Both the position numbers and the translations under genes were made by a program. The notes beneath the pieces were generated by a model. It was not told the origin of the DNA. It was given only the letters and a program-made list of their open reading frames with translations, and made no database searches. DNA of 13,913 nucleotides from Candidatus Bathyarchaeia archaeon (GTDB taxonomy: Archaea > Thermoproteota > Bathyarchaeia > Bathyarchaeales > Bathycorpusculaceae), in assembly GCA_038883775.1 (NCBI GenBank), contig JAVZLM010000014.1, forward strand, positions 1 through 13,913, written 5' to 3'. Positions 2,736 to 13,913 of this stretch are shown here, in pieces (the stretch's first letter is position 1; each line of letters starts with the position of its first letter).

Positions 2736-2749
2736 GTAATAAAGGTTTT
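2736..2749 (-). promoter_or_regulatory. Putative BRE/TATA promoter of tRNA-Cys
   Basis: The minus strand reads AAAACC-TTTATTAC about 30 nt upstream of the mature tRNA 5' end. Confidence 0.45.
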
Positions 2750-3794
2750 ATTGGTTTAACCCTATTTTGTGGGATATTTCTTTATATATTTCGAGGGCTT
2801 TTTCTTCATTTTCTATGTTTTTTATTAGCATGCGTCCGCTGTTGAAAAGTGTTATTTCGTAATTTTTGTATGTGAAGACTACTGCCATTGAGGACTTTAC
2901 ACGTAATTTGAAGTTTTGCTTTATTTTTTTGTGAAGGCTTTCAAGGTTTAGTTTTGTTGGTTTTTCTGGGTTTATGTTGATCGTGTTTCTTCCGCATAGC
3001 CAGACAAGTTTTTCTCTTGGTTTTTGGGTTGCTGCTTCGCCTCGGCACGCTGGGCAGTTTTCTCTCTTGTATATATCTATTGTTGTGATGTACATGTCGC
3101 TAAAGTCGCATATCATAAGCTTGTTTTTTAAAGGTGTACCTATTCCAGCCAAAAGTTTTATCGTTTCCATGGCTTCTATCGTCCCAATAATTCCTGGAGT
3201 TGCCCCTAAAACCCCTCTAACATCGCATGTTAGGAGGTTGCCATCTTCAAGGTTTGGTAAGACGCATTCTAAGCATGGAGTTTCAGGCGGAGCGAAAACT
3301 GAGAGGTTGCCTTCCATTCCTATGGCGGCTCCGAAAACATATGGGATTTTAAGTTTTATGCAAGTGCGATTGACGATATAACGTGTGCGCATGTTGTCTA
3401 AGCCGTCAACAACGCAGTCAACGCCCTTCAGCAGTTTTTCGGCGTTGTTCACATTCAAGTTTTCAGGCACAGCCTCAACTTTAACAAAAGGACTTATTCC
3501 CATAAGTCTCTTTGCTGAAACCTCAGCTTTTGGATACTGCAAATCCCTTGGTGTGTATAAGACTTGTCTGTGAAGATTGTGAGGTTCCACGGTGTCTTGA
3601 TCTATTAGGCGTAGGTAGCCAACGCCAGCAAGCGTCAAATATAGCGATGCAACCGTTCCAAGTCCGCCAAGCCCGACAACAGCAACATTTGCCCTTGCAA
3701 GCCTCTTCTGCCCTTCACGTCCAAGCTCTCTCATGACAAGTTGGCGGCTGTAAAATTCTTCGTATGAGATTCTTGGTTTTCGCGTTTTTGACAT
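2748..3794 (-). CDS. ThiF/MoeB/HesA (E1-like) adenylyltransferase with a C-terminal Cys-containing TBP-like domain
   Basis: YSRQ arginine finger, GLGGLG, DxDxVExxNLHRQ, two Zn-binding pairs (CLEC, CPAC), active-site-loop Cys in TCDVRGVLG, and a ~90-aa tail starting near LCGRNT. Start is ATG 3794 or 3809. Confidence 0.92.
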   Translation of the reverse strand: MSKTRKPRISYEEFYSRQLVMRELGREGQKRLARANVAVVGLGGLGTVASLYLTLAGVGYLRLIDQDTVEPHNLHRQVLYTPRDLQYPKAEVSAKRLMGISPFVKVEAVPENLNVNNAEKLLKGVDCVVDGLDNMRTRYIVNRTCIKLKIPYVFGAAIGMEGNLSVFAPPETPCLECVLPNLEDGNLLTCDVRGVLGATPGIIGTIEAMETIKLLAGIGTPLKNKLMICDFSDMYITTIDIYKRENCPACRGEAATQKPREKLVWLCGRNTININPEKPTKLNLESLHKKIKQNFKLRVKSSMAVVFTYKNYEITLFNSGRMLIKNIENEEKALEIYKEISHKIGLNQ

Positions 3795-3821
3795 TTCAAA
3801 TCTTCCCATTTAGGACGCATA

Positions 3822-5525
3822 TTAAATGCTGTTCTGCAGCCTTATATTACCCTTTTTCAAAAACTGTTTCTGATAGATTTCTCTAACCTTCTGTATGGTG
3901 TCGGCTTCCTCTGGGGTTTTATCATCCCTTATTCGGGTTATTCGTGCAAAACGCAGTGCCATGCCACATTTGTATTTTGGACTTTTCTGAATTTCGTTGT
4001 AGGCTACTTCCACAACAATTTTCGGAGTCACATAGATTCTACGGTACTCTTCTTTTATGGCCAGCTCTTTTAGGCGTTTAGTCATCTCGATGATTTCGGA
4101 GTCTGTTAACCCCTTGAAGGTTTTGCCAACTATTAAAAACTCGCCGGTTTCTGCGTCGCGAGCCGCCAAATAATAGTCTGAAAGCCACCCGCGTCTCCGC
4201 CCATAACCATACTCCGCGGCAACGATAACTAAGTCTAATGGTTCAAGGATTGGCTTTATCTTTAACCAATGCTTTCCACGGATTCCAGGCGTATATTCAC
4301 TGTTTAACCTCTTAGCCATGAGCCCCTCATGTCCACATTCAATAGCCTCTTTAAGGAACCGTTCCGCTTCGTGAATGCTGCCTGTAACTATCTGTTTTGT
4401 TAATGGTATCCCTCCGGCATTCTCAGCCAATATTTGTCTCCGCTGAAAATATGGCAGCGAAATTAGGCTCTCGCCGTCCAAGTACAAAATGTCAAAGAGG
4501 TAAAGCTTAACCGGCACCGTTTCAGCCATGTTTTCTATTTCATGGACTCTTTTAAACCTCCGCATGAGATGTTGGAATGGAATGGGGTGTCCCTCGCTGT
4601 CTACAGCTATCACTTCGCCTTCTATAATGGCTTCACGGGCTTTAACTTCCCTCTTCACAGCGTCGGCTATTTCTGGCAAACTCTTAGTAACATCTGTTAA
4701 TCTTCGACTGAAAATTCGTACATCATCGCCGCACTTATGAATTTGGACTCTGGCGCCGTCAAGTTTGTGCTCAAAAGCGGTTTTTCCTCCATGTTCTTTA
4801 ATTGCTTCAGCCACATTATTTGCCGTCTGTGCTAGCATAAGCTTGACAGGTCTAAAGACTTGAAAACCGATTTTTGAAAGTACATCCCTACCCCCAGCCT
4901 TTATTAACGCTGCCATAGTGCCAATGTCCCCAAGCACCATTCCCGCCCTTTTAACGGTTTCAAGCGGTATCTGGAAAGCCTTTGAAACCGCTTGCTCCAT
5001 TAATCCTTCATAGAACCCTGTTCGCATCTCGCCAATGAATATCTTAACTAAATATTTTGCTTCAAGCGGGGAAGCTAAACTTAGCAAAGCCTCAATTAGG
5101 CGCTCCTTTTTCTCCCTAGAACCACACCCAACAGTTTCGGCTATAGCCTCAAAATTCCGCCTAACCTCCAGTATTGTCAAGGGCTTTTCAAGAAGCACCG
5201 CTTGCCGCTTAACCTTACAACTTTCGAAAACAACTTTTGCTGCTGAACCCACGTCTCCAGTCTGGTTGAAGGCTTCAAGAAAAACTTTCCACTCAACTTC
5301 AGTAACACGCCTAATAATTCCACTTAGAGTAGCCCAACTCACATCAAGAGTTAGCTGACTCCACTTTGGAAATGGTCTCCCCAAAATCATCGAAACCGCT
5401 GGTTCAACCTCGCTGGGTTCAAGGTTTTTCAGAAATTCCGCTACAAGGTTTACCGCTGCGACCCGTCTGCTCATACCTTCCAGAGTTTCACATAGCTCTG
5501 CCAGGGCCTTAAAGGGTGTAGGCAT
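3822..5525 (-). CDS. lig: ATP-dependent DNA ligase
   Basis: N-terminal helical DNA-binding domain, motif I EHKLDGAR, III EGEV, IIIa LFDILY, IV EGLMAK, V WLKIK, VI LRFARITRIRDDK. ATG 5525 (MPTPF) is more plausible than 5561. Confidence 0.96.
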   Translation of the reverse strand: MPTPFKALAELCETLEGMSRRVAAVNLVAEFLKNLEPSEVEPAVSMILGRPFPKWSQLTLDVSWATLSGIIRRVTEVEWKVFLEAFNQTGDVGSAAKVVFESCKVKRQAVLLEKPLTILEVRRNFEAIAETVGCGSREKKERLIEALLSLASPLEAKYLVKIFIGEMRTGFYEGLMEQAVSKAFQIPLETVKRAGMVLGDIGTMAALIKAGGRDVLSKIGFQVFRPVKLMLAQTANNVAEAIKEHGGKTAFEHKLDGARVQIHKCGDDVRIFSRRLTDVTKSLPEIADAVKREVKAREAIIEGEVIAVDSEGHPIPFQHLMRRFKRVHEIENMAETVPVKLYLFDILYLDGESLISLPYFQRRQILAENAGGIPLTKQIVTGSIHEAERFLKEAIECGHEGLMAKRLNSEYTPGIRGKHWLKIKPILEPLDLVIVAAEYGYGRRRGWLSDYYLAARDAETGEFLIVGKTFKGLTDSEIIEMTKRLKELAIKEEYRRIYVTPKIVVEVAYNEIQKSPKYKCGMALRFARITRIRDDKTPEEADTIQKVREIYQKQFLKKGNIRLQNSI

Positions 5526-5617
5526 AATAACACACTTGATTCTACATGTTAAAATAGTCAAAAGAAGCTAAAATTGTTTATTTTAGTGGACGTGAAATAA
5601 AAGGGGAGATGCAACTT

Positions 5618-5992
5618 TTAAAAAGATTCTTCAAGCTTCGCCTTAACCTCTTTTATCTTTTTTTCGGTCTCCGAAGCTTTCTCTTCTTCGCCTAAAGCCT
5701 TATAACAGTCTCTGGCATATTCCAAAGCGCTGACGCCAAATCTATCAAAGCCCTTTTGAAATGAGAGCTCCGCAGACTTTAAGAAATATTCAACTGCAAG
5801 AGCATAATCCTTCAACATGAAAGCACATTCTCCAGCCTTGAAAAGTGCGTACGTAGCGTCAAAGAAATTGTTCTTTTCCTTGTAAAGTTCAGAAGCTCTC
5901 AGAAACTTTTCCTTAGCTTCATCATACTTGCCAATCTCGTAAAGTGTATTTCCATCTTTGTGCAATTTGACTGGATCTTCCTCTTCCGCCAT
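5618..5992 (-). CDS. Small TPR/alpha-SNAP-like helical repeat protein
   Basis: TPR-type helices (GNTLYEIGKYDEAKEKFLRASELY; AGECAFMLKDYALAVEYFLKSAEL; ARDCYKALGEEEKA). Likely start is ATG 5992 (MAEEED). Confidence 0.8.
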   Translation of the reverse strand: MAEEEDPVKLHKDGNTLYEIGKYDEAKEKFLRASELYKEKNNFFDATYALFKAGECAFMLKDYALAVEYFLKSAELSFQKGFDRFGVSALEYARDCYKALGEEEKASETEKKIKEVKAKLEESF

Positions 5993-6137
5993 GGTTACCA
6001 ACCCATAACTTCCTATACCAGACCACAAACATAAATTTAGGTTTTCCCTGTCAGCGTCTAAAATATTCTAAACTGGTTAAGGTTAAATAGGCATAATGTT
6101 TAAAACGCTCATATCAGAGCCGCAAGGCGAGGTAGAC

Positions 6138-6815
6138 ATGTCCGTTGACGCATTAATAGTGACCAGAAACCTAAGAGAAGTTTTACCTCAGACCATTAAG
6201 AGCCTCCAACTTTATCCATTTAAGAACATCGTTATCGTTACTGGAGAAAAGAATGACCTAAAGCGTCAAAAGGATTGGTATGACATCATCGTCTATGGAG
6301 GCAAAGAACCCTTAGGGCAGCAGAGGAACATTGGTCTGGATCTTGTCGAAGCTGAATTTGTCTGCATGGTCGACTCAGATATAGTTTTAACGAAAGGGTA
6401 TATAGAAACTCTACTGAAACTTTTTGAAGATCCAAAAGTTGCCGTTGCTCGTGGAAGGTTGTTTCCACTTAACCCAGAGAATCTATACTCAAACATTAAG
6501 TCACGCATAACCGAAGCGTTCAACATGATTCATAGGCAGGTGGGATGTGACGCTGCGGTTTACAGAGCCAACATAGTAAAGAAAGTTAAATTTAACCCAA
6601 AACTGTACACAAGGGAGGACCACGACCTAAACAACAGATTGAGGAAATTGGGGTATAAAGTAGTTTTCACAAAGGATGCCTACTGCTTCCATGACTTTAG
6701 AATGTCGATAAAATTGGAAGTTAAGCATCACGCTGAGCGGGGAAACGTATACGCTTTACTATGCTCATGGGCCAGAAACATTTCGAGACCAATATTCTTC
6801 TTTATGCCTTGGTAA
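6138..6815 (+). CDS. Glycosyltransferase family 2 (GT-A fold)
   Basis: QRNIGL, VDSD (DxD) and EDHDL..RLRKLGYKVVF motifs. SD-like GAGGT at 6129-6133 favours ATG 6138 over 6096. Confidence 0.88.
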   Translation: MSVDALIVTRNLREVLPQTIKSLQLYPFKNIVIVTGEKNDLKRQKDWYDIIVYGGKEPLGQQRNIGLDLVEAEFVCMVDSDIVLTKGYIETLLKLFEDPKVAVARGRLFPLNPENLYSNIKSRITEAFNMIHRQVGCDAAVYRANIVKKVKFNPKLYTREDHDLNNRLRKLGYKVVFTKDAYCFHDFRMSIKLEVKHHAERGNVYALLCSWARNISRPIFFFMPW

Positions 6816-6846
6816 TAGCTAAAATGGAACTTAACATTTCCCATTA

Positions 6847-7599
6847 TCATTGCAAAGCTTTTCTTTTAAACCTTTGAGATAGGCTTTTATATATAACGTA
6901 GACCGTGTAAAAGGCATAAGCTGCAAAAAACTTTGGAAGTTTTCGGAAACTGCAAAAGCGTAGATTTTCAATGAGTATATGTATGCTTCCCTTTATTGTC
7001 CAAGCCTCGGGAGGTCTAAAATGTACACAGTAGGGATCGTAAGTTGCCACTAGCCCATAACCCTTCTTCTCCACCCATTCCTTAATGAAGGCATCTTCAA
7101 ACACGTGCAAATTTCTTGGAATTTCTATATCTTTAAGAGCTTCACGGCGCACAAGTAGGTCGTGGGTCCCTCCCCTTAAATCAAAAATTTTCCACGTTAT
7201 TTTCAAGAAAAGCTTTAACACTGCGGGGTTTTTAATGCCTTCCCAAATTTCTATACCCCAAACCCCTCCAACATTGTCTGCCACCAAGTTTTTGGCTTTT
7301 TCAAACCATTTATCACAAAGAACAACGTCACTGTCAACAAAGACAAGCCATTCAGTTTTAGCTTCCTCTATACCCTTCATCCTTGCGCTGCCGCGAGTGC
7401 CATTATCCATCAACAGAACCACATTCCCATATTTCTCCCTAAATTTCTCAATAATTTTTAACGTAGAATCGGTTGAGTATCCATCCACTATTATTAAACG
7501 GTTTACAGGAATATTTTCATAAATTGAGTTTAAGCATTTTTCTAAAACTCTCTCGCTGTTTTTCGTAAGTACTACAACGTCCACGTTTTTGATGGGCAC
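6847..7599 (-). CDS. Glycosyltransferase family 2 (GT-A fold)
   Basis: VVVLTKNSE, IIVDGYSTDST, FVDSDV and FED motifs. GTG start. Confidence 0.92.
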   Translation of the reverse strand: MPIKNVDVVVLTKNSERVLEKCLNSIYENIPVNRLIIVDGYSTDSTLKIIEKFREKYGNVVLLMDNGTRGSARMKGIEEAKTEWLVFVDSDVVLCDKWFEKAKNLVADNVGGVWGIEIWEGIKNPAVLKLFLKITWKIFDLRGGTHDLLVRREALKDIEIPRNLHVFEDAFIKEWVEKKGYGLVATYDPYCVHFRPPEAWTIKGSIHILIENLRFCSFRKLPKFFAAYAFYTVYVIYKSLSQRFKRKALQ

Positions 7600-7778: not shown

Positions 7779-8816
7779 ATGTCTGCCATTGTAAAAGCCT
7801 TTAGCATTGTTTCGCGAGTCTTAGCCCCAGACAAGCCTTATCATGTTCAATGGATGATTACAAGAAAATGCAATTACCGCTGCAGAGGATGCAACGTTTG
7901 GCGGGAGCAAGACAACAGAGAACTATCAACTGAAGAGATTAAACATGGACTAGATATTCTCCGAAAACTAGGCGTTATAGAAGTAGTGATATCTGGCGGC
8001 AACCCGCTTTTGAGAGAGGACATCGATGAAATAATCGCGTATGCGTCACGTTACTTCTTTACAACAGTCTATGATAATGGCAGTTTGGCAGCTGAAAAAA
8101 TTGATGCTTTAAAGTACGCAAATTTTGTCGCAATCTCAATAGACAGCCTAAACCCAGAAAAGAACGACCGCATAAGGGGTGTTAAGGGCGCATGGAAGAG
8201 AGCCATGGAAACTGTTGAAAAACTTCATATGGAAAAAATTAATGTGAGCGTAACACCTACAATTTCACAAGCCAATCTTTACGAGATTGTTGACTTCACC
8301 AAGTATTTCTTGAAAAGGGGAATTCCAGTTTGGTATTCTTTATACTCTTACGATACACCAAAGCATTCGAATCCGCTTTTTAAAATAGGAAAAGCGGAAG
8401 ACTCCTTCTCAATAAAGGATAGGGACGCAATGGTTAAGGTATGCGACTCGCTTCTGGAAATGAAGCGTGAGAACGAAAACTTGTTGATTACAAACAAAGT
8501 TTTAGAAGCTGTTAAGCATCTTTATTTGAGCAATAAAAGAATTTGGAGGTGTCGTGCACTTCAGAATTTCTTCGTGATAAATCACCGTGGTGAAGTTGCC
8601 GGCTGCCACCTTCATGAACCGGTCGCTTCAATTTTTGATCTTCCAGACCTTTGGAAAAGTGAGAAGTTTGAAGCCCTTAGAAAAGAGTATAGCGAATGCA
8701 AAAGATGCGCATATCTTTGCTACATTTTCTACTCGATTCATGGAAGCGTCGCCGGCAACATTGAAATCGTTAAGGACAAGTGGCGTAACGTGAAATTTTT
8801 CTTAAAAAGACGTTAG
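7779..8816 (+). CDS. Radical SAM enzyme with a C-terminal SPASM/Twitch-like Cys-rich domain
   Basis: CNYRCRGC (CxxxCxxC), SGGNPLLR, ISIDS. Auxiliary cysteines in CRAL...GEVAGC...CKRCAYLC. Confidence 0.92.
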   Translation: MSAIVKAFSIVSRVLAPDKPYHVQWMITRKCNYRCRGCNVWREQDNRELSTEEIKHGLDILRKLGVIEVVISGGNPLLREDIDEIIAYASRYFFTTVYDNGSLAAEKIDALKYANFVAISIDSLNPEKNDRIRGVKGAWKRAMETVEKLHMEKINVSVTPTISQANLYEIVDFTKYFLKRGIPVWYSLYSYDTPKHSNPLFKIGKAEDSFSIKDRDAMVKVCDSLLEMKRENENLLITNKVLEAVKHLYLSNKRIWRCRALQNFFVINHRGEVAGCHLHEPVASIFDLPDLWKSEKFEALRKEYSECKRCAYLCYIFYSIHGSVAGNIEIVKDKWRNVKFFLKRR

Positions 8817-9784
8817 TTTGCACGTAATATTTCTAAAACAGCTTTCTCAACAGCTTGACGGCTGTTCATTTTAGGCTTCCACCCAAGATTTTTAAGTTTT
8901 TCGATGCTCAGGAGCATAATTTTTACGTCGCCTTTCCATCCTCTTCCTCCATCGACGCCGCCGGTGAAAACATATCGTACGCTTTTTAGTCCCATCTTTG
9001 TGCAAACAATATCTGCTATTTCCTTAACGACTATTTGATCTTCAGAGCCCACATTAAACACGCTTACCCTTTCGTTACTTGCCTCCAAGCCGGCTAAGAT
9101 GGCGTCTATACAGTCTTCAACGTGTAGGTAAGATTTTGTTTGGGTGCCATCGCCGAGTATCTCAAGCCTCTTTGGATTTTTCCGAAGCTTTTTTATGAAA
9201 TCGTTTATGACTCCATGCTGCGACCTTAAGCCTACAATATTAGCCAGTCTATAAATTATAGCTTTGAATCCGTACGTGTTAGCATATGATGAAATGAGGG
9301 CTTCGGCAGCCAGCTTAGAGGCGCCGTAAGTTGAAATGGGTTTTAGTGGAGCATAATCCTCTGGAGTTGGTATTACCGATGCATCTCCGTAAACTGTTGA
9401 GGAAGATGTGAAAATCAGAGTTTTGACATGCCCAACTTTGCGAATTACTTCAAGTAGGTTAAATGTGGCGAGCACGTTTTGTTTGTAATGAATTTGGGGA
9501 TTTTCAGAGCCAACGCGAACTTCCGGGTTAGCGGCAAGATGGAAAACACTATCACACTCACTTATGTATTTGACAACCTCTTTGGGTGACAGCAAGTCGC
9601 CATGTATGAATTTGAAATTAGGGGTGTTCAACCATTTTTTTATGTTTTCAATAACACCTGAGCTTAAGTTGTCAAATACAACAACTTCTTTGCCCATTTC
9701 GCATAATCTGTCTACTAAGTGGCTCCCTATGAAACCCGCGCCTCCTGTTATGAAAACTTTTCCAAGATCTGGACTCAGAGACAT
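8813..9784 (-). CDS. NAD-dependent NDP-sugar epimerase/dehydratase (extended SDR, GalE-like)
   Basis: TGGAGFIGSH, DNLSSG, HLAANP, SSSTVYG, YGASK. 4-nt convergent overlap with the radical SAM stop. Confidence 0.95.
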   Translation of the reverse strand: MSLSPDLGKVFITGGAGFIGSHLVDRLCEMGKEVVVFDNLSSGVIENIKKWLNTPNFKFIHGDLLSPKEVVKYISECDSVFHLAANPEVRVGSENPQIHYKQNVLATFNLLEVIRKVGHVKTLIFTSSSTVYGDASVIPTPEDYAPLKPISTYGASKLAAEALISSYANTYGFKAIIYRLANIVGLRSQHGVINDFIKKLRKNPKRLEILGDGTQTKSYLHVEDCIDAILAGLEASNERVSVFNVGSEDQIVVKEIADIVCTKMGLKSVRYVFTGGVDGGRGWKGDVKIMLLSIEKLKNLGWKPKMNSRQAVEKAVLEILRAN

Positions 9785-9839
9785 TTCTACCCTTCAGCGG
9801 ATTCATATTTTCAAAAAGGCTCTCGGCATATTTATTTTG

Positions 9840-10859
9840 TTATCCTTTATGCCTTGTTAATGCCAACCATAAGTGGTCACATTTTGGACGCGGAAGACTA
9901 GCTAAACGTTTATTTTTGCGAACCATTACACGCGTTTTTGAATCGGCCAAAAACTCGCCTATTACGGACGCCTCAATTTTTTCTTCCCTCAATTTTTTGG
10001 TTATGCATTCTACGTGTTCGGGTTTTGCCGCAATAAGCATGGCTCCAGAGCTTATTAGCTGCAATGGGTCTATCCTTAAAAGCCTACAGATTTCCGCAGT
10101 TTCGTCTGCCACCGGAATGTTCTCTTCAAAAACTTTAACGCCCAAGTTTGAGGCGTCTGCCATTTCGTGAATGCCTCCGATGACGCCGCCTTCCGTCGGG
10201 TCATGCATGGCATTTACTCCGCCAGTTTTGAAGGCCGCTATGCCATCTTTGACCACACTTATTTTCTCAAAAAACTTCTGTGCAGACCTTAAAAGCTCGC
10301 CATCAGCGCCCATATTTAGAAGAAGACTATAGCGTTCGGTTGCAAGTATGGCTGTCCCCTCTATGCCAGCACTTTTTGTCAAGATCAATTTATCTCCAGG
10401 TTTTGCTCCACCGGCAGTGACATAGCGCCCTTTTTCCGCTATTCCCAAAGCACATCCTATGACAACAGGATTTGTAAGCCCAGGTGTTACTTCGCAGTGT
10501 CCTCCAACAATTGCCATTTTTAAATCCTTTGCAGCGGCATCCATTTGGGAACATATAACCTCAACAGTTTCCCAATCAGCTTTTTCTGGAAGCAATATGC
10601 ACGAAAGGAAGAAGATTGGTTCCACACCAAAAGTGGCAACATCATTCGCATTAACGTTAACTGCAAGCCAGCCGATACGCTCAACAGCGCCTGTAATGGG
10701 ATCCATTGAAGCCACTAGGGATTTTTCATCTAAATCGATAACTGCACCGTCAAAACCGGCTGAAGGGCCGAGAACAACTTCCGCCCGTTTAAATCCCAAA
10801 TTTTTAAAGACAATTTCTGTAAGTATTTCAACAGGGATTTTTCCCATGGGCAACTTCAT
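9840..10859 (-). CDS. AIR-synthase-related (PurM/HypE/ThiL/SelD-fold) protein; not a canonical HypE
   Basis: GK start motif, DGAVI, DPITG, NANDVA, IVGGHCEVT, AKPGDKLILTK, MHDPTEGG. It lacks the C-terminal PR(I/V)C-COOH of HypE and ends PRPKCDHLWLALTRHKG. Confidence 0.88.
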   Translation of the reverse strand: MKLPMGKIPVEILTEIVFKNLGFKRAEVVLGPSAGFDGAVIDLDEKSLVASMDPITGAVERIGWLAVNVNANDVATFGVEPIFFLSCILLPEKADWETVEVICSQMDAAAKDLKMAIVGGHCEVTPGLTNPVVIGCALGIAEKGRYVTAGGAKPGDKLILTKSAGIEGTAILATERYSLLLNMGADGELLRSAQKFFEKISVVKDGIAAFKTGGVNAMHDPTEGGVIGGIHEMADASNLGVKVFEENIPVADETAEICRLLRIDPLQLISSGAMLIAAKPEHVECITKKLREEKIEASVIGEFLADSKTRVMVRKNKRLASLPRPKCDHLWLALTRHKG

Positions 10860-10882
10860 TTTTAGCCCTTTTCAAAGTTCTT

Positions 10883-11602
10883 TTAGATCTTAAATATCCT
10901 TTGTGCATTTTGCTCCAAAATCATATCAAGCTGCTTTTTTGTTAAACCAGCAACTTCAACTTTTTTAATTTCAAAGGCAGGGTGGCCGAAGGGCATATCA
11001 GACCCGTAAATGACTCTGTTCTCGCCGATTTTTAAAACAGCCTCCTTTATTTTACTATGCATAGGCATCGCGGATGTTTCTAGTATGATGTTTTCATGTT
11101 TTTGTGCAACTTCTATGGCTCCGTTAATGTAAACTATATGCCCATGACCCATGTGGCCCAAAATAATTGGAACATCGGGGTACACATCAGCTAAGTTTCC
11201 AAAGTGCCATGGCAAAGACCATGGTGGATGACCGCAATGGAAAAGGACTGGCACCTTATATTTACGGGCTTGATCCATTATAGGATAAACTATGTCCTGA
11301 TCCGGCAAGTACGCGTTAAGTAAGGGGTGCATCTTTATCCCTCTGAAACCCCATCTGTTAACTGCTTTGTCTATTAGTTTCACAGCGTCTTCGCCGTAGT
11401 AGGGGTTGACCCAGACAAGGCCCACGAGTTTCTCTGGATATAAATTAACTGCGTTTTGGGTCAATTGATTTGGTAAAGAAAAGACTATACACTTTTTTAT
11501 GTTGCATTCATCCATAATACGCAGCATTCCTTTAACATCTAATTCAACGTTGAAAACTGGGAATTTGCCAAGATGAGTGTGGGAGTCTATAACCACAATC
11601 AA
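10883..11602 (-). CDS. Metal-dependent amidohydrolase superfamily protein (Amidohydro_2/TIM barrel)
   Basis: IDSHTH (HxH), GIKMHP, LFHCG, LGHMG, YGSDMPF. SD-like GGAGAGG immediately upstream favours TTG 11602 or GTG 11596; ATG 11635 is also possible. Confidence 0.92.
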   Translation of the reverse strand: MIVVIDSHTHLGKFPVFNVELDVKGMLRIMDECNIKKCIVFSLPNQLTQNAVNLYPEKLVGLVWVNPYYGEDAVKLIDKAVNRWGFRGIKMHPLLNAYLPDQDIVYPIMDQARKYKVPVLFHCGHPPWSLPWHFGNLADVYPDVPIILGHMGHGHIVYINGAIEVAQKHENIILETSAMPMHSKIKEAVLKIGENRVIYGSDMPFGHPAFEIKKVEVAGLTKKQLDMILEQNAQRIFKI

Positions 11603-11639
11603 TCCTCTCCACACATTTAACCCAGTTTTGGGCATTAAC

Positions 11640-12179
11640 TTATAGCAAGTATTCTATTTTTAGTGATCGCCTTAATATTAACAAAATTGGCACCGTCACG
11701 ACGATGTCTATAGCGCTTAGAGGGAAAAATGTGATTAGATCTAAATACGCTACAGGACCAAACAAAAAGTAATCGTAAAGAAAATAACCCACGTTTTTCT
11801 CGATTGCGGCGAAAACCATTGCTAGAAGTTCGGAACGTCTCGGTTGTGTTGAAAATAAGCGCCTTAAACTGCCCAGCAGAAAACCCATAAAACCGCGAAT
11901 AACTATTGTTGCTGGAGCCCACTGTATAAAACTACTACCCCATAGGGGATTCCATATGTCGAAGAGCATAGCACCAACACCACATGCAAATGATCCTACA
12001 AGAGGCCCGCAAAGGATGGCTGCTATAAAAGATGCAATGTCTCCCAAATGCCAAACCCCTAAAGGTTTGGGCATAGGAACAGATATGGCTGTCATGGCGT
12101 AAACAAGTGCTGTCATGACACCCATAGTTGCTATAACTTTTGAAGGTGACACGTTTACATGGAATGCTCTTGTGTTCAC
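11640..12179 (-). CDS. ECF transporter substrate-binding S component (HmpT/PdxU-like)
   Basis: 179 aa, about 6 hydrophobic segments. The pattern ALV...T...VP.P..G..HLGD...F.AA.L.GP..G..A.GVG..L.D....WAP.T.VI.G.MG resembles HmpT/PdxU-type S components as I recall them. The substrate is not proven. Confidence 0.85.
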   Translation of the reverse strand: MNTRAFHVNVSPSKVIATMGVMTALVYAMTAISVPMPKPLGVWHLGDIASFIAAILCGPLVGSFACGVGAMLFDIWNPLWGSSFIQWAPATIVIRGFMGFLLGSLRRLFSTQPRRSELLAMVFAAIEKNVGYFLYDYFLFGPVAYLDLITFFPLSAIDIVVTVPILLILRRSLKIEYLL

Positions 12180-12202
12180 GTTTTACCCCTTCGTATAGAT
12201 TT

Positions 12203-12236
12203 AGTTAAGGTATAACTTTACTATATAAAATTTAGC
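12203..12236 (-). promoter_or_regulatory. Putative promoter (TATA) and candidate operator upstream of the ECF S gene
   Basis: Minus-strand TTTATATA at 12229-12222 preceded by GCTAAA. Inverted repeat AGTTA-N5-TAACT at 12203-12217 just downstream. SD-like AAGGGG before GTG 12179. Confidence 0.5.
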
Positions 12237-12268
12237 TTAACCAAAAAATGGAGTGATCATGAAAATTA

Positions 12269-13672
12269 TCACAACAAGAGTTTTAAGTCATCAAGCGCTG
12301 TCAAAACTTTTCTCCCACGCCTCGTTATTCTGTAGTGTTTTCTCCCATTTTTTATGAAGCTCACCACTAACCCTCTTTGGTACAGTTCATTTAGGTGCTG
12401 GTATATGGCTACTCTTGTCATTGTTTTTCCGAGTTTTTTCCATAAATCATAGCCGTAAGTGTCCTTTTCACACAAGATCTTAAGTATTTTCGCTTTTGTA
12501 CTTAACTCTAATCCAATAACCGCTGTTTTCTTTTTCTTTGTTAAGGCTTGAAGGATGTCTGTTGCTTTTAGACCGCTTCCAGTTATTAAGCATACAACCT
12601 TGTCCTTTTTGTCGATAACTCGCTCATTCATAAGCTTTTTTAGCGCTGCGTATGTTGCTGCGCTTGCTGGTTCGGCGAAGACGCCTTCATGTTTGGCGAT
12701 TTCCTGTTCTGCTGAAAAGATTTCTTCGTCTGAAACTGATGTAGCGATTCCTTGGGATTCTTTTATGGCTTTAAGGGCTAGTTTGCCATACCAGGGGTTT
12801 TTAACGAGGATGGCGAGTGCCCGGGTTGAAGGTTTTGCTGTGAAGGCTAGCTCATGAATTTTTTGCGTGTACGCTTTCACAATTGGTGAGCATCCTTCGG
12901 CTTGGACGCCGATCATCTTTGGAACGGATTTTACCTCGCCTTTTATTTCAAGTTCTTTGAAGCCTTTCCAAACGGCATATAATGTTCCGCCACTCCCCAT
13001 GGGGGCTATAAACCAGTCTGGAGCCTCCATTTGTTCGTAAACTTCATAGGCTATGGTTTTTAGGGCTTCTATGGATAGTGGATTAAACTCTGCGGACCCT
13101 TGATACCATCTCATTTCTTTAGCTAACTCATCCGCTCTTTTCAATGAATCATCCACTATTTCACCGTGCTCCTCGATTATAGCATCATAGATGAGCATTT
13201 GGGCAAGTTTTCCCATGTCCACGTTTCTCGGCACCACAACATGGCATGCTAATCCGGACTTTGCACAGTATGCAGCCAAAGAGGCACCAAGGTTTCCATT
13301 TGTAGCACAGACAAGCGACTTATACCCTAAATCTACAGCGTTGGAAACCATTAGGGCAGCGCATCTATCCCTAAAAGAATTTGTTGGGTTTCGCGTCTCG
13401 TCTTTGAAGTATAAATTGTTTAGCCCAACGCTTTCGGCAAGTCTCCACGCCTTTATGAGCGAGGTTCCGCCTTCCCCCATTGAAACAACATTCCTAACCG
13501 CTGGCAAAAATTTCCTGTAACGCCAAAAAGTGAAGGAACCGACAAATTTCTCAGTTTTAAGCACTTCATCGTCACATTTATACTCTAGAATGCTGCCACA
13601 TTTCTTGCAACTATATCGTGGCGGATAAGCTTCAAACTTTGCACCACACGTTGTGCACGTCAGATAGAACAT
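12269..13672 (-). CDS. Threonine-synthase-like (PLP fold type II) protein lacking the catalytic Lys, fused to a C-terminal PadR-type winged helix-turn-helix
   Basis: N-terminal Zn ribbon (CTTC/CKKC), SMGEGGT, NPTNSFRDR (canonical NPTGSFKDR), GVQAEGCSP, EGVFAEPASA, LITGSGLK. Then ILKILCEKDTYGYDLWKKL...AIYQHLNELYQRGLV...RKHYRITRRGRKVL, the PadR pattern. Start is GTG 13675 or ATG 13672. Confidence 0.88.
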   Translation of the reverse strand: MFYLTCTTCGAKFEAYPPRYSCKKCGSILEYKCDDEVLKTEKFVGSFTFWRYRKFLPAVRNVVSMGEGGTSLIKAWRLAESVGLNNLYFKDETRNPTNSFRDRCAALMVSNAVDLGYKSLVCATNGNLGASLAAYCAKSGLACHVVVPRNVDMGKLAQMLIYDAIIEEHGEIVDDSLKRADELAKEMRWYQGSAEFNPLSIEALKTIAYEVYEQMEAPDWFIAPMGSGGTLYAVWKGFKELEIKGEVKSVPKMIGVQAEGCSPIVKAYTQKIHELAFTAKPSTRALAILVKNPWYGKLALKAIKESQGIATSVSDEEIFSAEQEIAKHEGVFAEPASAATYAALKKLMNERVIDKKDKVVCLITGSGLKATDILQALTKKKKTAVIGLELSTKAKILKILCEKDTYGYDLWKKLGKTMTRVAIYQHLNELYQRGLVVSFIKNGRKHYRITRRGRKVLTALDDLKLLL

Positions 13673-13747
13673 CACGCTGCCTCGTTTTCCCTTTTCCTAA
13701 ACGTTAAATTCAGCAGTCCCATCTATGAGGCTTTCTGAATTCTAGGT

Positions 13748-13912
13748 TTAAGGCTCCAAGCTTGGAAGTATTGCAATTACCTCCGCAACTCGCTTTACAA
13801 TTATCCGGTCAAATTTGACATCGTTTTCTATATTAACCAGCGGACCGATTCCATGCTGTTCGTTTTTAATATTTCTTGGGTTTGCATCCTTTGGCTTTTC
13901 CAACATTATGAA
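13748..13912 (-). CDS. C-terminal end of a hypothetical protein (truncated by window edge)
   Basis: Open frame FIMLEKPKDANPRNIKNEQHGIGPLVNIENDVKFDRIIVKRVAEVIAILPSLEP* ending in TAA at 13750-13748. No recognisable motif. Confidence 0.5.
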   Translation of the reverse strand, partial: FIMLEKPKDANPRNIKNEQHGIGPLVNIENDVKFDRIIVKRVAEVIAILPSLEP

Positions 13913-13913
13913 T

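Follow-up and report, generated by a model that had tools for sequence, protein, structure and literature searches.

We analysed a stretch of 13,913 nucleotides (the window), which is the entire 13.9-kb contig C14 of a 1.69-Mb Bathyarchaeia metagenome-assembled genome (MAG; 91% complete, 5.12% contamination). Within it, four co-oriented minus-strand genes encode a threonine synthase-like protein fused to a PadR domain (ThrC-PadR), an S component of an energy-coupling factor (ECF) transporter, an amidohydrolase and a PurM-fold protein. An initial annotation, made from the sequence letters, had proposed that these genes form a vitamin B6-like uptake and salvage module headed by a sensor-regulator. 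The reading of the first two as a predicted regulator and a predicted B6 importer is well supported by comparative genomics. Below, C denotes contigs of this MAG, G genomes of the class, L fetched loci and f families of Bathyarchaeia. The features of the locus, in the order in which they are read, are as follows.

12269–13672, minus strand: gene 1, ThrC-like pseudoenzyme of pyridoxal 5'-phosphate (PLP) fold type II with C-terminal PadR domain (type 1, Lys replaced by Arg), predicted regulator; from Pfam and alignment to 2zsj
12222–12229, minus strand: TATA-box-like TTTATATA, putative promoter of the S gene, read from the sequence; overlaps the operator by 2 nt
12202–12223, minus strand: predicted operator, 22-bp imperfect palindrome TAGTAAAGTTATACCTTAACTA, 18/22 to the consensus TAGTATAGTTATAACTATACTA
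11640–12179, minus strand: gene 2, solitary ECF S component of a divergent PF07155/COG4720 subfamily, 179 aa; from PF07155
10883–11596, minus strand: gene 3, Amidohydro_2-fold enzyme, predicted metal-dependent, 237 aa from GTG 11596; from PF04909
9840–10859, minus strand: gene 4, PurM-superfamily (AIRS/AIRS_C) ATP-utilising protein of an uncharacterised family, 339 aa; from Pfam

The gaps between the four genes are 89 nt, 4 or 43 nt (by the start of gene 3) and 23 nt, and the listing of open reading frames (ORFs) and the sequence agree exactly on this layout, as first described. Gene 1 can start at GTG 13675 (468 aa) or ATG 13672 (467 aa, the size of nearly all homologues). Gene 3 has an alternative upstream ATG at 11635 (250 aa); its GTG at 11596 is preceded by a Shine–Dalgarno-like GGAGAGG, and alignments to orthologues begin at about residue 13–15.

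The ThrC-PadR protein

The gene 1 protein combines a PALP domain (250.9 bits, residues 64–366) with a PadR domain (45.4 bits against a cut-off of 27, residues 397–459) and has no Pfam match to a GntR or aminotransferase domain. It resembles the threonine synthase 2zsj over the full length of the fold (E 2.1e-65), and NPTGSFKDR of 2zsj aligns with NPTNSFRDR of gene 1, placing Arg at the site of the Schiff-base Lys. The 120 nearest homologues (type 1) are database clusters of 64–85% identity, nearly all 467 aa long, and those that carry a name are all called 'threonine synthase'; the residue at this site is R in 117, S in 2, M in the remaining one and K in none. More distant ThrC-PadR fusions (type 2; about 475–495 aa, 34–39% identical to gene 1, PadR domain 53–54 bits) have L, I or M there and K in 0 of 10, and the canonical paralogues of the same genome have K in 3 of 3. 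The Arg of the NPxR motif, which from the ThrC literature we take to bind the phosphate of O-phosphohomoserine, is present in 2 of the 3 canonical paralogues and is replaced, together with neighbouring residues, in all 120 type-1 proteins: the position holds Ser in gene 1, V, A or others in type 1, and F or L in type 2. Preserved across type 1 are a stacking Phe, a GN motif, a Gly-rich phosphate loop and a TG motif, presumably the residues that contact the cofactor. The PLP-fold pseudoenzyme regulator of the initial annotation is thus borne out in its architecture, with Arg for the catalytic Lys, no Lys in 120 homologues and a PadR domain present.

Loss of the Lys goes with the added domain. 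An alignment of 151 diverse sequences (the query and 150 representatives) includes 78 in which the C-terminal domain is aligned and the Lys site is occupied, and 72 of these lack Lys; of 71 without the domain, 69 keep it. The six sequences that have both are two true fusions and four proteins of 614–622 aa with a different tail. Because most ThrC-PadR proteins lack the Schiff-base Lys, any PLP binding by them must be non-covalent. The two Lys-keeping fusions, representing the clusters P0126 (62 members, Bathyarchaeota; NPTSSFKDR) and P0130 (Lokiarchaeota; NPTNSFKDR), are candidates for covalent binding of PLP and perhaps reflect the ancestral state.

That gene 1 is a working threonine synthase with a C-terminal extension, as its relatives are annotated, is extremely improbable. 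Besides those names, the scores speak for it: 218.8 bits to TIGR00260, over the cut-off of 167.1, and 400 bits to the 'threonine synthase' model NF004170, under its cut-off of 421. Passing TIGR00260 reflects fold, not activity. Against a working enzyme stand the missing Lys and the lost substrate-phosphate Arg, the identity of the extension as a PadR domain, and the presence in this genome of ThrC paralogues, on C7, C18/C2 and C6, that do have the Lys. The annotated threonine synthase is more likely a transcription switch, built on a dead enzyme, for a B6-type importer.

Regulator-linked S genes, their predicted operator and the link to vitamin B6

Gene 2 matches PF07155 with 71.2 bits (cut-off 26.7), and all 32 of 32 members of its subfamily, here called window-type, match it too. 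We placed it by comparison with solved structures, which we take to include RibU, ThiT, BioY, FolT, PanT and CbrT: the sole solved S component matched by gene 2 is HmpT (4hzu_S, E 9.5e-5; E 1.4e-4 with the subfamily profile), and a profile of 29 regulated S components likewise has L. brevis HmpT/PdxU2 as its sole solved S match (E 2.6e-23), with 6fnp_A at E 0.2. The assignment to the PdxU/HmpT type made in the initial annotation agrees with these matches. PdxU and PdxU2/HmpT have been assigned to PF07155/COG4720 (available text of PMC9997740); in the available text of PMC4860826, HmpT was originally named after hydroxymethylpyrimidine (HMP), its substrate is reported to be pyridoxamine, and Glu41 and His84 are named as substrate contacts.

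Gene 2 shares with HmpT/PdxU2 and PdxU (PF07155/COG4720, 4HZU) the Pfam family and the solitary S gene with an ECF module elsewhere. In the weak alignment to HmpT, another acidic residue, Asp47, stands opposite Glu41. The window-type S differs from HmpT in being only about 25 bits similar and in the position of His84, which aligns with Arg95, invariant in the subfamily (Lys in the commoner regulated type) and followed three residues on by an invariant Met; it differs from both HmpT and PdxU in always being followed by an Amidohydro_2 gene. We know of no bacterial PF07155 S gene followed by an Amidohydro_2 gene. The shared module that the initial annotation expected elsewhere in the genome is found on contig C1 (111–114 kb), where EcfA, EcfA' and EcfT are encoded without an adjacent S gene (ECF_ATPase_1 277.9 bits and ECF_ATPase_2 276.2 bits, both under NCBIfam equivalog cut-offs, and a CbiQ-type T gene).

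Across a set of 42 loci (the window, a paralogous locus on C4 and loci from 40 class genomes), the regulator is followed by a PF07155 S gene on the same strand in 33, the window included. A palindrome matching TAGTATAGTTATAACTATACTA in at least 16 of 22 positions precedes the S gene in 29 of 32 related intergenic regions, and for two of the three misses the ORF was called too long and part of the site shows at its edge. In the window, the palindrome ends 22 nt ahead of the GTG of the S gene, with a GAAGGGG stretch in between, and TTTATATA, which would act as the promoter, is placed relative to start codon and palindrome as in related loci. A position weight matrix (PWM) scan of the whole 1.69-Mb genome returned only two strong sites, the one in the window (24.3) and one at C4:167574 (36.3), both of which precede regulator-linked S genes; the next-best site scores 13.2, no more than a shuffled genome yields. 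On metagenome contigs, PWM sites scoring at least 22 lie ahead of 25 of 55 window-type S genes, and of 14 of 16 where the regulator is co-directional. A palindrome placed like this one, downstream of the TATA box and ahead of where the transcript should begin, is typical of a dimeric repressor, and repression is the presumed mode of action. A scan for bacterial promoters and terminators, a method ill-suited to archaea, gave fewer promoter-like sites than shuffled sequences.

The link to vitamin B6 comes above all from the sister fusions. In all four family f21 loci fetched around PdxS, a type-2 fusion stands divergently against pdxS-pdxT (pdxT confirmed by Pfam in L051), and the same divergent arrangement occurs in the Nitrososphaerales MAG L164. 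Type-2 fusions are also divergent against PF07155 S genes in L055, L058 and L059, and lie beside such genes in L148, in Thorarchaeota, in a Nitrososphaerota MAG and in Nitrosopumilales. The sister clade thus has pdxST or S-gene neighbours in Bathyarchaeia, Nitrososphaeria and Asgard archaea alike. Intergenic regions at type-2 loci have in common a ATATATAA-N-CCTATATAT motif, which recurs outside Bathyarchaeia, even in GC-rich spacers; a regular expression for it found no match in the metagenome loci but was too strict, as inspection shows such palindromes in L092, L135 and L143. A scan of species genomes covered 28 fusion loci, 14 of them outside Bathyarchaeia: in 7 of these 14 a PF07155 S gene lies beside the fusion (two Thorarchaeota, a Nitrososphaerota MAG, a Nitrosopumilales MAG, a Hermodarchaeota, a Promethearchaeia and one unclassified archaeon), and in one, the Nitrososphaerales MAG mentioned above, pdxS-pdxT is divergently adjacent. 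A protein atlas also includes PALP+PadR clusters in which Nitrososphaerota and Thorarchaeota are the commonest phyla; one atlas cluster of the family has 1978 members.

PdxS was not found in the 91%-complete genome that holds the window. Among 301 Bathyarchaeia genomes, it passes the cut-off in 33 and is missing from 268, and of the 102 genomes with a type-1 orthologue (full-length, at least 430 bits) 7 have it. The proposed B6 association is much strengthened by the sister fusions beside pdxST and by a genome without PdxS. The comparison with the phyletic pattern of pdxS and pdxK suggested in the initial annotation gave a mixed outcome: PdxS is rare in the class and absent here, the patterns of regulator and PdxS are not complementary, and the PdxK model was too narrow. 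E. coli-type PdxK (TIGR00687) was found in 0 of 301 genomes with a model that exceeded its cut-off in only 2 of 14 control genomes; given so narrow a model and the presence of a ThiD-type kinase, this does not establish that pyridoxal kinase is missing.

A sensor descended from threonine synthase might instead respond to threonine, homoserine, O-phosphohomoserine or a PLP–amino-acid adduct, with the S component importing an amino-acid-like nutrient. Gene context lends this some colour, with asd and an AsnC-type gene inside the same window and, near type-1 regulators, a canonical Lys-bearing thrC (about 410–430 aa), mostly direct and divergent upstream (family f2: L030, L032, L035, L036, L039, L040 and L041; other contigs: L068, L080, L081, L157, L167, L172 and L177). 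This neighbouring thrC may be a trace of the regulator's origin by duplication. No type-1 operator was found ahead of the regulator gene itself or on the thrC side, where the best match is 14/22; the substrate-phosphate Arg and its neighbours are replaced in 120 of 120 type-1 proteins; and the regulated set consists of PF07155 S genes and pdxST rather than amino-acid genes. We consider amino-acid sensing improbable.

The amidohydrolase and the PurM-fold gene

Gene 3 matches PF04909 (Amidohydro_2) with 93 bits. D4, H6, H8, K88, H90, H120, H148, E173 and D200 are invariant in 30 sequences, and the metal-ligand set HxH, H, H, D of Amidohydro_2 is present. Its AlphaFold model is a TIM barrel (pLDDT 96.6), for which Foldseek gives probability 1.00 to 3cjp, an uncharacterised Clostridium protein, and to Amidohydro_2 decarboxylases; the nearest folds after 3cjp are aromatic-acid decarboxylases, hydratases and lactonases at 14–22% identity, from which no substrate can be named. 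A search of metagenome contigs with the amidohydrolase gave 80 loci, 63 of them with at least 560 nt upstream. In 59 of these 63, a window-type S gene (46–76% identical) lies directly upstream on the same strand, and the four without one are among the more distant matches (44–60% identical). The amidohydrolase is thus an obligate partner of the window-type S. A ThrC-PadR gene adjoins 29 of the 45 amidohydrolase loci with room for it (13 co-directional, 13 divergent, 3 convergent).

Three further observations concern this gene pair. In the locus of the nearest relative (L011, regulator 79% identical), the S gene is of the common type and there is no amidohydrolase. On L080, L081, L083, L124 and L129, the pair of window-type S and amidohydrolase is accompanied within a few kb by a second PF07155 S gene of the common type. 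The C4 locus and L022 have an amidohydrolase paralogue of 30% identity upstream of the regulator, and some contigs have both amidohydrolases.

Gene 4 contains AIRS (66.1 bits) and AIRS_C (98.8 bits) domains and falls under every NCBIfam cut-off of its superfamily relatives (HypE 123.4/251.6, ThiL 97/184.15, SelD 77.6/125, PurM 42.5/236); the genome has a true HypE (376 bits) and a true ThiL (271 bits) at other positions. It represents an uncharacterised PurM-superfamily family distinct from HypE, ThiL, PurM, PurL and SelD. The names of its relatives and the protein atlas gave only 'AIR synthase family protein' and 'hydrogenase maturation factor', with no functional lead. As a side observation, L010 3531–4143 (G000:C4:161530–162142) contains only PurM-fold fragments (43–61% identical, 157-aa ORF), maybe a decayed copy.

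There is a real, if lesser, possibility that the functional unit comprises the regulator, S component and amidohydrolase, with gene 4 an unrelated housekeeping neighbour. The family is present in 259 of 301 class genomes (E ≤ 1e-50), almost always as a single copy; it often lies far from the regulator in genomes that have one (for example G202, G090, G044, G014 and G241), and it follows the S gene in 20 of the 42 loci and comes directly after the amidohydrolase, on either strand, in 17 of 51. Around gene 4 itself, a 23-nt gap before it and a T-rich stretch and 55-nt gap after it point the same way. Set against this, the gene recurs by B6-linked genes in varied arrangements and lineages: it comes after the S gene in families f1, f5 and f6, converges on an S gene that adjoins a type-2 regulator in L058, and lies downstream of S in the Nitrosopumilales MAG L156; G007 has it immediately ahead of pdxS-pdxT, and in G013 it again converges on an S gene. 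Because this association is repeated and varied, it suggests a role for the PurM-fold protein in B6 metabolism that is not specific to salvage.

Since its parts recur in relatives, the four-gene arrangement is more than chance, and as a unit it is conserved only in part. The neighbourhood test proposed in the initial annotation bears out the pairs of regulator with S gene and of S gene with amidohydrolase, and finds the PurM-fold gene adjacent in some lineages only. The further proposal that all four act as one unit to import, hydrolyse and phosphorylate is not supported in that form: the amidohydrolase accompanies only one divergent S subfamily, and the PurM-fold family occurs in 259 of 301 genomes regardless of the regulator.

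These two enzymes also enter into the main alternative named in the initial annotation, salvage of a thiamine precursor of the HMP or formylaminopyrimidine type, in which an HmpT-like S component would import, the amidohydrolase deacylate and the PurM-fold protein, as a ThiL relative, phosphorylate. Bacterial salvage of base-degraded thiamine includes an amidohydrolase step; ThiL is the second-best NCBIfam match of gene 4, HmpT was first named for hydroxymethylpyrimidine, and the window-type S matches HmpT only weakly. Several observations argue the other way: the sister regulators stand beside pdxST and not thi genes, no thiamine gene occurs among the annotated neighbour clusters of the 42 loci (some clusters were left unannotated), the genome has its own CytX-like HMP transporter beside ThiDN as well as a bona fide ThiL, and the substrate reported for HmpT is pyridoxamine. 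The alternative is weakened, and we regard thiamine-precursor salvage as quite unlikely.

A candidate B6-responsive operon and its surroundings

We consider it probable that the locus is a vitamin B6-responsive uptake operon. Gene 1 would be a transcription regulator derived from the threonine synthase fold, with the cofactor motifs and minus the Schiff-base Lys and the phosphate-binding Arg, whose dead active site would reversibly bind a signal, either PLP or a B6 vitamer close to it. With ligand bound, the dimer would occupy the 22-bp palindrome between the TATA box and the start of the S transcript, shutting off the downstream operon when B6 is plentiful. The S component would be energised by the EcfA–EcfA'–EcfT module encoded elsewhere and would import a B6-related compound, which the Amidohydro_2 metalloenzyme that always accompanies this S subfamily would convert in one step; here, the operon would also include the PurM-fold ATP enzyme. 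Gene order, domain content, the lost catalytic residues, the conserved palindrome, the family of the S component, the pdxST link of the sister regulators and the scarcity of PdxS in the class are observed; which ligand is bound, that the regulator represses instead of activating, what is transported and what both enzymes do are predictions within this model.

Several points weigh against this model, beginning with the fact that it is built entirely from sequence and gene context. Compared with the near-invariant residues of the commoner regulated S components, to which it is only 24–34% identical, gene 2 has WH for FN, Arg for Lys95 and Met for Glu98, and the AEVPxNIxQ motif is absent. Because these residues are missing, a plain B6 vitamer as its substrate is uncertain, and the match to HmpT, at about 25 bits, is itself weak. 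The window operator is imperfect (18/22), and the halves of the type-2 'operator' ATATATAA-N-CCTATATAT may in part be the TATA boxes of two divergent promoters lying back to back. No fusion lies near two PdxS loci of family f12 (L061 and L062), and 6 of the 14 fusion loci outside Bathyarchaeia, two of them cut at a contig end, have neither an S gene nor pdxST near the fusion. In family f30, which has no type-1 orthologue, PdxS occurs in only 1 of 43 genomes, and the non-complementary pattern of regulator and PdxS is compatible with B6 dependence without being diagnostic of it. Finally, statements about the genome of the window may mix two populations, because the MAG seems to hold two versions of the locus. 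The ThiF, DNA ligase and TPR protein genes that precede the ThrC-PadR/S locus in window 2748–6028 recur in L010 (G000:C4) 11883–15098, with protein identity of 64–79% between the C14 and C4 versions, and C18 and C2 also have near-identical copies of thrC. Binning of two related populations seems a likelier source of this pattern than true paralogy.

A bolder version of the B6-responsive operon is, in our judgement, unlikely: that ThrC-PadR fusions are the missing B6 regulators of Archaea, that their regulon reveals two new B6 enzymes, that the near-universal PurM-fold protein is an ATP-dependent kinase or activating enzyme for B6 vitamers, non-orthologous to PdxK and replacing it, and that the window-type S component and amidohydrolase salvage environmental B6 in modified or degraded form for return to the vitamer pool. 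Candidate substrates would then be lactones and pyridines with an acyl or carboxyl group, for instance products of the pyridoxolactone or pyridoxate type.

Two described systems resemble the proposed regulator. Bacterial PdxR/MocR proteins also fuse an enzyme-derived PLP-fold domain to a winged helix-turn-helix, are encoded beside pdxST or B6 salvage and uptake genes, and are predicted to couple B6 supply to PLP (Suvorova and Rodionov 2016, available text of PMC5320631). They have a type I aminotransferase-like fold with an N-terminal GntR domain, whereas ThrC-PadR is archaeal, has a type II fold with a C-terminal PadR domain and in most members lacks the Schiff-base Lys; PdxR/MocR is an analogue of ThrC-PadR, not a family member. 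In the archaeal RbkR, a pathway-type enzyme domain joined to a DNA-binding domain controls vitamin synthesis and transporter genes, and the enzyme activity is retained in a bifunctional protein (available text of PMC5397151), whereas ThrC-PadR has lost its catalytic residues. RbkR further differs in vitamin, fold and DNA-binding domain, and the available text of PMC5397151 has 0 occurrences of 'pyridox'. Because fold, DNA-binding domain and domain order differ, ThrC-PadR fails the defining features of both the PdxR and RbkR families. With ThrC itself, gene 1 shares the full-length fold, an N-terminal Cys-rich zinc-ribbon-like segment and the cofactor-contacting motifs; it differs in lacking the catalytic Lys and substrate-phosphate Arg, in the added PadR domain and in a gene context of B6 rather than threonine.

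A full-text literature search, with supplementary tables outside its scope, turned up neither a ThrC-PadR regulator nor any B6 regulator of archaea, in keeping with the initial annotation, which knew of no such archaeal system. The evidence points to ThrC-PadR as a candidate undescribed family of archaeal B6 regulators. Transporters and regulators of B6 are an acknowledged gap, and the available text of PMC9997740 lists only three characterised prokaryotic B6 transporters. If the model is true, thousands of archaeal 'threonine synthase' sequences are mis-annotated and are really vitamin sensors made from a dead enzyme; the regulon would mark B6-supply genes in Bathyarchaeia, Nitrososphaeria and Asgard archaea, and would flag the amidohydrolase and the PurM-fold protein as B6-linked candidates. 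The abundant sediment and hot-spring Bathyarchaeia without PdxS (268/301) would then depend on B6 supplied by the community.

Other genes occur in or near the locus. In some lineages, the regulated operon has extra genes, after the PurM-fold gene in L014–L016 and after the S gene in L020, L021, L024 and L160; such genes encode a ComB-like 2-phosphosulfolactate phosphatase (PF04029, 247 bits) and a 240-aa protein with an NAD-kinase C domain. In the window, 172-aa ORF 1523–2041, between asd and ThiF, matches ATC_hydrolase at 26.8 bits, under the threshold of 28.1. The DNA of window 9700–13913 has near-identical counterparts in hot-spring metagenomes, where 8 runs from two studies each contain half or more of the sampled words; the runs listed are DNA, with none of RNA among them. 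Beyond gene 4, 55 nt further on, a fifth minus-strand gene (9784 to 8813) encodes an NAD-dependent epimerase and is part of a glycosyltransferase and radical-SAM neighbourhood: a radical SAM/SPASM gene (best match the PTO1314 family, 115 bits, under cut-off) and two GT2 glycosyltransferases, at 7779–8816 and 6096–7599, adjoin the PurM-fold gene across much of the family.

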